This document shows positions 20,317-23,396 of a DNA stretch of 64,000 nucleotides, piece by piece (the first letter of the stretch is position 1; every line of letters begins with the position of its first letter). The notes beneath the pieces are model-generated. The model was not told where the DNA came from and did no database searches. It saw only the letters and a program-made list of their open reading frames with translations. The position numbers were made by a program, and so were the translations under genes. The DNA comes from Escherichia coli (GTDB taxonomy: Bacteria; Pseudomonadota; Gammaproteobacteria; Enterobacterales; Enterobacteriaceae). Location of the stretch: assembly GCF_029227855.1 (NCBI RefSeq), contig NZ_CP074356.1. One strand, 5' to 3'.

Positions 20317-21201
20317 ATGAAAAAAACATTACTGGCAGCCGGTGCGGTACTGGCGCTCTCTTCGTCTTTTACTGTCAACGCAGCTGAAAACGACAAACCG
20401 CAGTATCTTTCCGACTGGTGGCACCAGAGCGTTAACGTTGTCGGAAGCTATCACACCCGTTTCGGACCGCAGATCCGCAACGATACCTACCTTGAGTACG
20501 AAGCATTCGCTAAAAAAGACTGGTTCGACTTCTATGGTTATGCGGATGCGCCGGTATTCTTCGGCGGTAACTCCGATGCAAAAGGTATCTGGAACCACGG
20601 TTCTCCGCTGTTTATGGAAATCGAACCACGTTTCTCCATCGACAAGCTGACCAATACTGACCTTAGCTTTGGTCCGTTCAAAGAGTGGTACTTCGCGAAC
20701 AACTACATTTACGACATGGGTCGTAATAAAGATGGTCGCCAGAGCACCTGGTACATGGGTCTGGGTACCGATATCGATACTGGCCTGCCGATGAGCCTGT
20801 CCATGAACGTCTATGCGAAATACCAGTGGCAGAACTATGGCGCAGCGAATGAAAACGAGTGGGACGGTTACCGTTTCAAAATTAAATACTTTGTGCCGAT
20901 TACCGATCTGTGGGGCGGTCAGCTGAGCTACATCGGCTTCACCAACTTCGACTGGGGTTCCGATTTAGGGGATGACAGCGGTAATGCAATAAACGGTATT
21001 AAGACCCGTACCAATAACTCCATCGCTTCCAGCCATATTCTGGCTCTGAACTACGATCACTGGCACTACTCTGTCGTAGCTCGTTACTGGCACGACGGTG
21101 GTCAGTGGAACGACGATGCAGAACTGAACTTCGGCAACGGCAACTTCAACGTTCGCTCTACCGGCTGGGGTGGTTACCTGGTAGTAGGTTACAACTTCTA
21201 A
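20317..21201 (+). CDS. tsx: nucleoside-specific outer membrane channel Tsx
   Basis: 294-aa product starting [22 protein letters not shown] (signal peptide), C-terminal ...GYLVVGYNF; the track ORF is extended upstream. Confidence 0.95.
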
Positions 21202-21211
21202 TTGTGAGAAT

Positions 21212-21237
21212 GCCGGATTTCATATCCGGCATTTTTT
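21212..21237. terminator. hairpin GCCGGAT-TTCAT-ATCCGGC followed by TTTTTT, bidirectional terminator between convergent tsx and yajD
   Basis: Read directly from the sequence, 10 bp after the tsx stop. Confidence 0.65.
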
Positions 21238-21238
21238 A

Positions 21239-21586
21239 TCACTTCTTCTTGTTCATCATCGCTTTCAGGTCAGCGAATGGGTTGTACTTCGCTTCACCGA
21301 CATCTTTCTGCGCATCTTCCCCTGCGATAACGGTCGTACCATACTGATCTGCTTCGGTATATTTTGAATGCTCGTGATCGTGGCAATAAAGACACAATAA
21401 CTCCCAGTTACTGCCGTCTTCCGGGTTATTGGTATGGTCGTGATCAATGTGGTGAACGGTAAGTTCACGCAGGTTGGAATAAACAAACTCGCGAGAACAG
21501 CGACCGCAGACCCACGGATAGATTTTTAATGCTTTTTCGCGATAGCCGCTTTCTAAGCGCGCATAGTTTTTGGGGATGATAGCCAT
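21239..21586 (-). CDS. yajD: HNH nuclease family protein YajD
   Basis: 115-aa ORF with HNH-like Cys/His cluster (CGRC...HHIDHDH...CLYCHDHEH). Confidence 0.9.
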   Translation of the reverse strand: MAIIPKNYARLESGYREKALKIYPWVCGRCSREFVYSNLRELTVHHIDHDHTNNPEDGSNWELLCLYCHDHEHSKYTEADQYGTTVIAGEDAQKDVGEAKYNPFADLKAMMNKKK

Positions 21587-21771
21587 GAAAAGTTACCTGG
21601 ATGAAATGTAGGGTTACGCGCAGTTTCCCAAGATGCGGAGATTTTCGCAATCTCCATACATCAATAAATATCCTCCGGCATAGCCGGAGGTTTTTCAAAT
21701 GCGCCTATAAGGCTCTCTTACCAGCCGCGCCCTAACAGGCGCACACGATCTGACATTTGCATCCAACTTCG

Positions 21772-22230
21772 TTACTTACGGCCCGTAAACGGGCTGCCCG
21801 GATAGGGAATCGATAACTGCTCTCCCATTTTATCCTCTTCAAGCTGGTGCTTTATGTAATCCTGTATCTTCGCCGTGTTCTTACCCACTGTATCGACGTA
21901 GTACCCTCTGCACCAGAACTCCCTGTTCCTGTATTTGAATTTCAAATCACCAAACTGCTCGTAAAGCATCAGACTGCTTTTCCCTTTCAGATATCCCATA
22001 AACCCGGATACGCTCATTTTAGGCGGGATCTCCACAAGCATATGGATATGATCTGCACAGCATTCAGCTTCCAGAATCCGTACGCTTTTCCACTCACACA
22101 GCTTTCTCAAAATACTGCCTATTGCTCTACGCTTCTCTCTGTAGAACACCTGTCTTCGGTATTTTGGCGCAAAAACTATGTGATATTTACAGTTCCATCG
22201 GGTGTGCGCTAAGCTCTTTTCGTTCCCCAT
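21772..22230 (-). CDS. tnpA: IS200 transposase TnpA (Y1 HuH tyrosine transposase)
   Basis: Product MGNEKSLAHTRWNCKYHIVFAPKYRRQVF...HIHMLVEIPPK...RGYYVDTVG recognised as near-identical to IS200 TnpA. Confidence 0.9.
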   Translation of the reverse strand: MGNEKSLAHTRWNCKYHIVFAPKYRRQVFYREKRRAIGSILRKLCEWKSVRILEAECCADHIHMLVEIPPKMSVSGFMGYLKGKSSLMLYEQFGDLKFKYRNREFWCRGYYVDTVGKNTAKIQDYIKHQLEEDKMGEQLSIPYPGSPFTGRK

Positions 22231-22234
22231 TGGG

Positions 22235-22306
22235 ACCCCCTTTTGATTTCTTGTTTGACACTTGCAGTTGCCAGACCGCAAGGTGTTTTAACAAATCAAA
22301 AGGGGT
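22235..22306 (-). promoter_or_regulatory. IS200 5' UTR stem-loop that sequesters the tnpA ribosome-binding site
   Basis: Inverted repeat arms at 22235-22255 and 22290-22306; the arm next to the start codon contains the Shine-Dalgarno AAGGGGG. Confidence 0.55.
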
Positions 22307-22373
22307 TTTAATAACTGGCTCAAAGCTGAAAGCTTTCCGGAACCCCCTGCCTAGCTGGGGGTTTTCTGTGCAC

Positions 22374-22402
22374 AAAAAAATCCCGATCTTCTGACCGGGA
22401 TT
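22374..22402 (-). terminator. rho-independent terminator (stem TCCCGATC/GACCGGGA flanked by A7 and T4), 22 bp downstream of secF; may be the IS200 left-end terminator
   Basis: Hairpin followed by a 7-nt U-run on the minus strand. Confidence 0.6.
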
Positions 22403-22424
22403 TTCAACATCAACGGGAACTTGA

Positions 22425-23396
22425 TTACGGCAGAATTGACGGCTGATCCGCCCCTTCTTTTTCCACTTTCTGCTGCAGCATGTGTTCGCGCTTCATACCC
22501 AGTTTCAGAGCCAGCGCCGATGCCACATAGATGGAAGATGCAGTACCGATGGAAACACCGATAAGCATGGTCAGCGAGAAGCCTTCCAGTACCGGACCAC
22601 CGAAGAGGTACAGCATCAGGATAACCATCAAGGTAGTACCGGATGTGATCAAGGTACGGTGCAGCGTCTGGGTCAAGGACACGTTAAAGATTTCGTAAGG
22701 CGTACCGCGACGGATCTTGCGGAAGTTTTCGCGAATACGGTCTGATACCACGATACTGTCGTTAAGCGAGTAACCGATAACCGACATCAACGATGCCACA
22801 ATGGTCAGGTCAATCTCGATATGGAATAACGACAAAATACCCAGCGTAATGATAACGTCGTGCGCCAGCGCAATAACAACCCCTGCCGCCAGTCGCCACT
22901 CAAAGCGGAAACCTACGTACACGAGGATAGATAGCAGCGCCGCCATCAACGCCATCGCACCGGTTTGCGCAAGGTCTGCCCCCACGCTCGGACCGACGAA
23001 CTCAATACGCTTCACTGCCGCATTCTGATTGGTGGATTCGTTAATCACCTTCAGAACCTGGCTGCCCAGCACCTGACCGCCGGTTTCGCCTTCAGCAGGC
23101 GGCATACGGACCATGATGTCGTGGCTGCTACCAAAGTTTTGCAGCATCGGCTCTTCAAAACCGGCTTTTTGCAATGCATCACGCATTACGTCAATTTCAG
23201 CCGGTTTTTCGAGCGTAATTTCGATAACCGTACCACCGGTGAAATCCAGCCCCCAGTTAAAGCCGCGCACGCCCATAATAACGATAGCGGCGATTAACAG
23301 CAGACCAGAGATGCCAAAAGCCCAGTAGTCCCAGCGCATAAAGTCATAGACTTTACGGCCGTGGTTTAGTTGTTCAACAGTATATTCCTGTGCCAC
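22425..23396 (-). CDS. secF: protein translocase subunit SecF
   Basis: 323-aa product from a GTG start at 23396 (RBS GAGGAG upstream); the track ORF is extended upstream. Confidence 0.93.

Follow-up and report, generated by a model that had tools for sequence, protein, structure and literature searches.

IS200 is known to carry a left-end terminator of its own, which occupies nts 12–34 of the element and, according to PMC4513863 and PMC5435999, halts approximately 85% of incoming transcripts. In IS608 and ISDra2, insertion takes place 3' of a fixed tetra- or pentanucleotide, which is read by a guide sequence lying beside the left-end hairpin. In addition, a general association between IS200 and terminators is already known, as a recent preprint has reported terminator-like sequences to be statistically enriched just upstream of IS200/IS605 elements. 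In a 64,000-nt stretch of Escherichia coli DNA (contig NZ_CP074356.1; hereafter, the window), a strong hairpin lies between the end of secF and an IS200C element, and an earlier note had left undecided whether it is the native sec terminator or the left-end terminator of the IS. While this ambiguity was genuine from the sequence alone, comparison with IS-free genomes refutes the second option. The hairpin, at 22374–22404 on the minus strand, is almost certainly the Rho-independent terminator of the host yajC-secD-secF transcript, and IS200C inserted later just 3' of its T-tract, neither supplying nor displacing it. Host ownership of such a hairpin is an ordinary finding.

All relevant genes around the secF-IS200-yajD junction are encoded on the minus strand. 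They begin with yajC (25282–25644), secD (23407–25254), and secF (22425–23396), the last gene of yajC-secD-secF, whose coding sequence of 323 amino acids plus stop is present in the list of open reading frames and is annotated, at 972 nt, in the identical strain H1 and in MG1655. After the secF hairpin comes IS200C with its single gene tnpA (21772–22230, minus), an open reading frame for a Y1 (HUH) transposase of 152 amino acids that is annotated as an IS200C family transposase, with PF01797 (Y1_Tnp) on record for the identical protein, and then yajD (21239–21586, minus), encoding an HNH nuclease, as supported by the reading frame, annotation, and alignment. The insertion adds 711 bp between the secF terminator and yajD, and the IS now separates the two, leaving yajD with its native 76-nt upstream region; promoter scans detected none near yajD, in the window or at the IS-free locus. 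The interval between tsx and yajD (21202–21238) contains one simple terminator hairpin (ATGCCGGATTTCATATCCGGCATTTTTT), and that of MG1655 contains REP elements, at which tsx 3' ends have been mapped (430960, 431033, and 431091). Rfam matches to SorX and AaHKsRNA41 at 21174–21238 fall under the gathering scores and cover only the tsx terminator hairpin, and were thus rejected as chance.

On the minus (secF) strand, the hairpin reads GAAAAUCCCGGUC-AGAA-GAUCGGGAUUUUUUU and begins 20 nt past the secF stop codon (22425–22427). As RNA, it is AAAAUCCCGGUC-AGAA-GAUCGGGAUUUU with further U's, seven in all, which occupy 22380–22374 immediately 3' of the stem. The plus strand of the same stretch comprises A7 (22374–22380), TCCCGATC-TTCT-GACCGGGA (22381–22400), and T4 (22401–22404), and the A7 and T4 flanks described previously are borne out, with the start placed correctly but the end, at 22402, 2 nt short. 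Likewise, the reported spacing of 22 bp from the secF stop holds when measured to 22402, but is 20 nt to the T4/A4 edge, and the roughly 170 bp assigned to the gap before tnpA proves to be 144 nt, given the ATG at 22230 that yields the 152-amino-acid product as annotated in other genomes.

The RNA of the secF strand folds into a 13-bp stem, A:U pairs among them, capped by a 4-nt loop and followed by U7, at a minimum free energy of −18.3 kcal/mol. It is more stable than its composition predicts, both as RNA (z = −2.9, 2 of 200 shuffled sequences being as stable) and as DNA (−10.3 kcal/mol, z = −5.3). The layout is that of an intrinsic terminator, a stable G+C-rich stem-loop with a U-run immediately 3' on the secF sense strand, and the symmetry between A4 and the U-tract makes it look hairpin-like on both strands. 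A consensus terminator scan of the window did not flag it on the minus strand, because its rule counts the A/U pairs into the stem, which leaves too few T's before GTGCAC; the identical scan does flag it at the IS-free locus. An identity as a REP or other repeat was rejected, since the hairpin occurs once in the window and, as a median, once per E. coli genome.

When positions 21500–22520 of the window were aligned to the IS-free locus of MG1655, a clean insertion of 710 nt emerged, together with an identical hairpin directly after secF (sequence AAAAAAAATCCCGATCTTCTGACCGGGATTTT). The earlier note had proposed such an alignment as the check, with a hairpin at the same position in IS-free E. 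coli meaning that it is native, and this is what was observed. The stem-loop is identical in MG1655, BL21, U12A, and ApSLC23, among which the T-run alone differs, being T7 in BL21 and T8 in the other three. Using a 120-nt probe across the empty site, hairpin included, the uninterrupted secF-hairpin site was found in 4,898 of 5,426 complete E. coli genomes, versus only 99 that have the IS junction there. IS200C copies at 11 other loci lack the secF stem, and the sequence that they have in common ends at GTGCAC, beyond which different hairpins and flanks follow. As a candidate for the left-end terminator of IS200, the secF hairpin is thus not inside the element, not in every copy, and without a match to the conserved left-end repeat. 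Because the same hairpin stands at the same position in IS-free genomes, it is native to the host and not supplied by the IS.

Transcript ends in K-12 agree with this assignment. The primary secF 3' terminus has been placed on the plus strand at 430523–430533, with its peak at 430527 (TRS dataset, PMC10687069 supplement), in an entry that describes this very hairpin (…GAAAAUCCCGGUCAGAAGAUCGGGAUUUUUUUU, U8, ΔG −18.3; secF 429505–430476). When positions are counted from the stop codon of secF, 430527 falls on position 22374 of the window, which is the last T before the IS and the host/IS junction; RNA 3' ends of the identical K-12 orthologue accordingly fall in the U-tract. The curated Term-seq list of Adams et al. 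(PMC7815308) contains no plus-strand 3' end after secF, but as this list applies a threshold and the end is mapped in the TRS dataset, its absence there does not weigh against the terminator. The same study calls a Rho-termination region at 430502 on the minus strand, which is antisense to secF; it lies at the hairpin foot (approximately 22400 of the window, plus strand), where coverage falls from 639 to 11 in untreated cells versus 657 to 281 with bicyclomycin (PMC7815308). An antisense transcript thus ends in the hairpin region as well. In K-12, an abundant transcript antisense to yajD ends Rho-dependently at the foot of the secF hairpin; where the IS is present, such a transcript would first reach the right-end hairpin of the IS with its T5 (21672–21695).

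Given these antisense data, it is conceivable, if rather doubtful, that the secF hairpin additionally serves as a bidirectional stop for antisense transcripts from the tsx/yajD side, an extra role that would not be exclusive of its function for secF. The A-run on one side and the T-run on the other, a plus-strand RNA fold of −16.0 kcal/mol, the minus-strand Rho region at its foot (PMC7815308), and the terminator-like form of the right-end hairpin of the IS on the plus strand all point in this direction, but just four T's follow the stem in the antisense direction and the strong effect of bicyclomycin shows that Rho, not the hairpin alone, ends the antisense transcript. It is very unlikely that the hairpin acts mainly as a 3' stem that blocks exonucleases, with true termination further downstream, for example by Rho, and the mapped end a processing product. 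Although 3'-end mapping alone does not separate termination from trimming, and stable 3' hairpins often mark processed ends, a 13-bp stem followed by U7–U8 is the canonical layout of an intrinsic terminator, the fraction value for the secF terminus in the 3'-end table is 0.98–1.0 (PMC10687069), and the Rho-termination table of Adams et al. contains no plus-strand Rho region after secF (PMC7815308). An intrinsic terminator of the sec operon hence remains the preferred reading.

The boundaries of the IS were established from the alignment to the IS-free locus, from other copies, and from occupied versus empty sites. IS200C spans 21663–22373 on the minus strand (711 bp), and its ends are ambiguous by up to 2 nt, given TT at both junctions; other copies match the window from 21662/3 to 22378–97. 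It encodes one Y1 HUH transposase of approximately 150 amino acids, has subterminal hairpins at both ends, and has neither terminal inverted repeats nor a target duplication, which places it in the IS200/IS605 family. Clean insertions are seen at both secF-yajD and yccU-hspQ when occupied and empty sites are compared. The length of 711 nt is given by the occupied yccU-hspQ site (L011) and an empty one (L135), whereas occupied minus empty at secF-yajD, against MG1655, is 710 nt. This difference calls for a T7 allele in the ancestor, and such alleles exist (BL21); therefore, the ancestor of the lineage probably had T7.

IS200C has its own left-end terminator, which is separate from the secF hairpin. 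This inverted repeat and bidirectional terminator, AACCCCCAGC-TAG-GCAGGGGGTT, with an A·A mismatch in this copy, lies at 22341–22363 on the minus strand and constitutes positions 1–23 of a full-length match to STnc490 (Rfam RF01405; 22240–22363, minus; 141.3 bits, gathering score 56, E = 6.5e-30). The match ends at 22363, 10 nt short of the secF hairpin; its first helix is the left-end hairpin and its second is the stem that hides the ribosome-binding site, and the published map of IS200 nts 12–34 fits 22341–22363. The mismatch arises from a T>A change at position 22348 (IS nt 26, minus) in the right arm of the left-end hairpin, which is unique among 137 left-end hairpins and is the sole difference from four other IS200C copies (L004, L006, L007, and L011). 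With a predicted RNA ΔG of −13.6 versus −18.7 kcal/mol, the change may weaken the terminator of the IS and, with it, the hairpin that the transposase binds.

At the other end, the second hairpin with T5, which had been placed at 21672–21695 beside the estimated IS boundary, is confirmed by other copies and folds as the subterminal right-end hairpin of IS200, CCTCCGGC-ATA-GCCGGAGG (21672–21690, both strands, with T5 on the plus strand to 21695). The right tip ATATTTATT comes next on the minus strand, with the hairpin lying inside the IS, 8 nt from this tip. The hairpin is found in all other IS200C copies as well as in the tandem junctions of Yersinia pestis IS1541. It scans as terminator-like on both strands, with folds of −15.5 and −18.8 kcal/mol as RNA and −10.0 kcal/mol as DNA.

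Against this background, the reading that the secF hairpin is itself the IS200 left-end terminator, brought by the element and now controlling the 3'-end formation of secDF, as had been entertained on the ground that it sits where such a terminator would be expected, retains next to no probability: it does adjoin the left end of the IS, on the side upstream of tnpA where a protective terminator is expected, and the initial one or two T's of its tract are ambiguous between host and IS, but the same hairpin occupies this position in IS-free genomes, is missing from every other IS200C copy, is distinct from the real left-end terminator at 22341–22363, and receives the K-12 mRNA 3' end without any IS.

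At the junction, polymerase would release the sec transcript in the U-tract, at about 22374–22380 of the window. IS200C inserted by single-strand transposition, with no target duplication, immediately 3' of the T-tract and oriented like secF. The arrangement places two stop signals in series, with the native terminator first and the left-end hairpin of the IS (22341–22363) 10 nt downstream, the latter providing a second barrier that would shield tnpA from read-through past the secF terminator. In the junction RNA with its IS flank, both hairpins fold independently. The insertion leaves the seven U's of the terminator intact and alters the sequence after them, which is U7-GUGCAC here versus U7 or U8-GAUG in IS-free strains. 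Termination of secDF in the IS-bearing strain would be unchanged from that in K-12. The idea that the insertion replaced or displaced the native terminator, handing the secDF 3' end to the IS, is not upheld, as the IS landed just 3' of an intact T-tract. Thus, it appears that the essential sec operon retains its own mapped terminator and that the IS adds a barrier without taking over 3'-end formation. For annotation, the IS boundary belongs at or beside 22373, not past the hairpin.

A different arrangement is found in the O157 strain Al Ain (L014:440–1145), in which a ParD/RelE toxin-antitoxin cassette takes the place of the spacer between secF and yajD, along with the native hairpin that it contains. 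There, secF is followed by a different terminator, ACCGUGGCG-UAUUUG-CGCUGCGGU plus U9, and the scenario imagined in the earlier note, in which a mobile insert supplies the terminator of the sec operon, may therefore occur in the O157 lineage.

The tight adjacency of hairpin and IS is not a coincidence, because IS200-group elements, as inferred from their junctions, insert at the ends of host terminator T-tracts. In E. coli, each of the 12 independent IS200C sites has a hairpin with a T-run directly against the left end; the hairpin is usually the terminator of a co-directional gene that ends 36–64 nt upstream, and in one case it is the terminator of the small RNA dsrA. In the latter, from strain Z0117EC0032 (L003:1315–1400), IS200C directly follows the terminator of what we take, from its sequence, to be the DsrA gene (…CCCGACCCCCTCAGGGTCGGGATTTTT, then GTGCAC), and the Hfq-binding context of the DsrA U-tail is altered by the element. 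A scan with the 24-nt left-end hairpin, one genome per species, returned 120 loci from Y. pestis, Vibrio, Brenneria, Mailhella/Desulfovibrio, Bacillota, Oxalobacter, and other metagenome-assembled genomes (MAGs). This 24-nt hairpin, AACCCCCAGCTAGGCTGGGGGTTC, is identical across Enterobacterales, Vibrio, Desulfovibrionaceae, Bacillota, Oxalobacter, and MAGs of Saccharibacteria and Elusimicrobia; the 10–11 nt outside it vary by lineage, and many matches lie at contig ends.

The association was quantified on 130 distinct left-end flanks of the IS200 group from many species (L002–L134 plus the window). A perfect-stem hairpin with a T-rich tail that touches the IS is present in 101 of them, versus 0.85% of random positions and 10% of T-rich positions. 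For the 40 nt leading up to the IS, the median folding energy is −18 kcal/mol, versus −6.2 kcal/mol at random positions, and a fold of −10 kcal/mol or lower is reached by 96% of the flanks and by 18% of random positions. The six bases that precede the element are T-T-T-N-T-T, the same as the right tip of the element itself, TTTATT, and constitute a specific short target at the left end, as is characteristic of IS200/IS605 members. The elements also point the same way as the upstream gene.

As single-stranded DNA, the secF terminator and the right end of the IS share the layout GAAAA-hairpin-T-rich tail, at −10.3 and −10.0 kcal/mol, respectively, and terminators are possibly targeted because they mimic the right end. 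In Y. pestis NCTC5923 (L079, L080, L082, and L126), there are head-to-tail pairs of IS1541 whose first copy runs, at its right tip (…GGAGGATATTTAT/T), straight into the left end of the second; these pairs are consistent with the right end itself serving as a target. It is proposed, tentatively and with confidence somewhat short of even, that the IS200 group (IS200C, IS1541, and relatives in Vibrio, Desulfovibrionaceae, Bacillota, and others) recognizes host terminators as a single-stranded hairpin plus TTTNTT that mimics the right end, GAAAAA-hairpin-ATATTTATT, and inserts precisely where the T-tract ends, in the orientation of the terminated gene. IS200C would then have picked the secF site because the group targets a hairpin followed by TTTNTT.

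If this holds true, target choice in the IS200 group would be structure-specific, not just a short-sequence match as in IS608, which would also account for the quietness of IS200, always behind a host terminator, and for its low harm to hosts. A search of the accessible literature for a precise junction rule and right-end mimicry in IS200/IS1541 found neither, although IS specialists may know of them. In practice, a terminator-like hairpin beside an IS200-type element should be presumed to be host-owned, and it also marks the end of the upstream transcript. Moreover, a junction of hairpin and TTTNTT offers a testable target model for a transposon that is hard to study, as it almost never moves in the laboratory.

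Among known systems, the closest to the secF hairpin of the window is the secF terminator of K-12 (430527), with which it shares the stem-loop, the distance from the secF stop, a U-rich tail, and an upstream A-tract that lends it a bidirectional appearance. The two differ in the tail, which is U7 in the window, as in BL21, and U8 in K-12, and in what follows, GUGCAC here and GAUGUAUGG in K-12. The left-end terminator of Salmonella IS200 (nts 12–34; Beuzon et al. 1999, as relayed in PMC4513863 and PMC5435999) resembles the secF hairpin in being G+C-rich, able to stop transcription in both directions, and located upstream of tnpA. However, this terminator, AACCCCCAGC-TAG-GCTGGGGGTT at 22341–22363, is inside the element, whereas the secF hairpin is unrelated in sequence, outside the element, and exists without the IS.

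With regard to target choice, IS200C is similar to IS608 and ISDra2 in that no target is duplicated and in that its left end abuts a short conserved motif (TTTNTT) resembling its own right tip, TTTATT. In addition, A-rich stretches (AGAAAA and GAAAAA) 5' of both end hairpins of IS200C are predicted to be able to pair with T-rich sites, as in IS608 and ISDra2. Unlike in these elements, the motif in the IS200 group nearly always follows a stable host hairpin, the IS200 side of the comparison being known from sequence data. Relatives of IS110/IS1111, and ISPpu9/10 in REP, also insert beside an extragenic hairpin, a low-cost site that shields the element from outside transcription, but their enzymes and chemistry differ. 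Group IIC introns, which insert at terminator stem-loops, provide a further parallel, again with enzymes and chemistry different from those of IS200.
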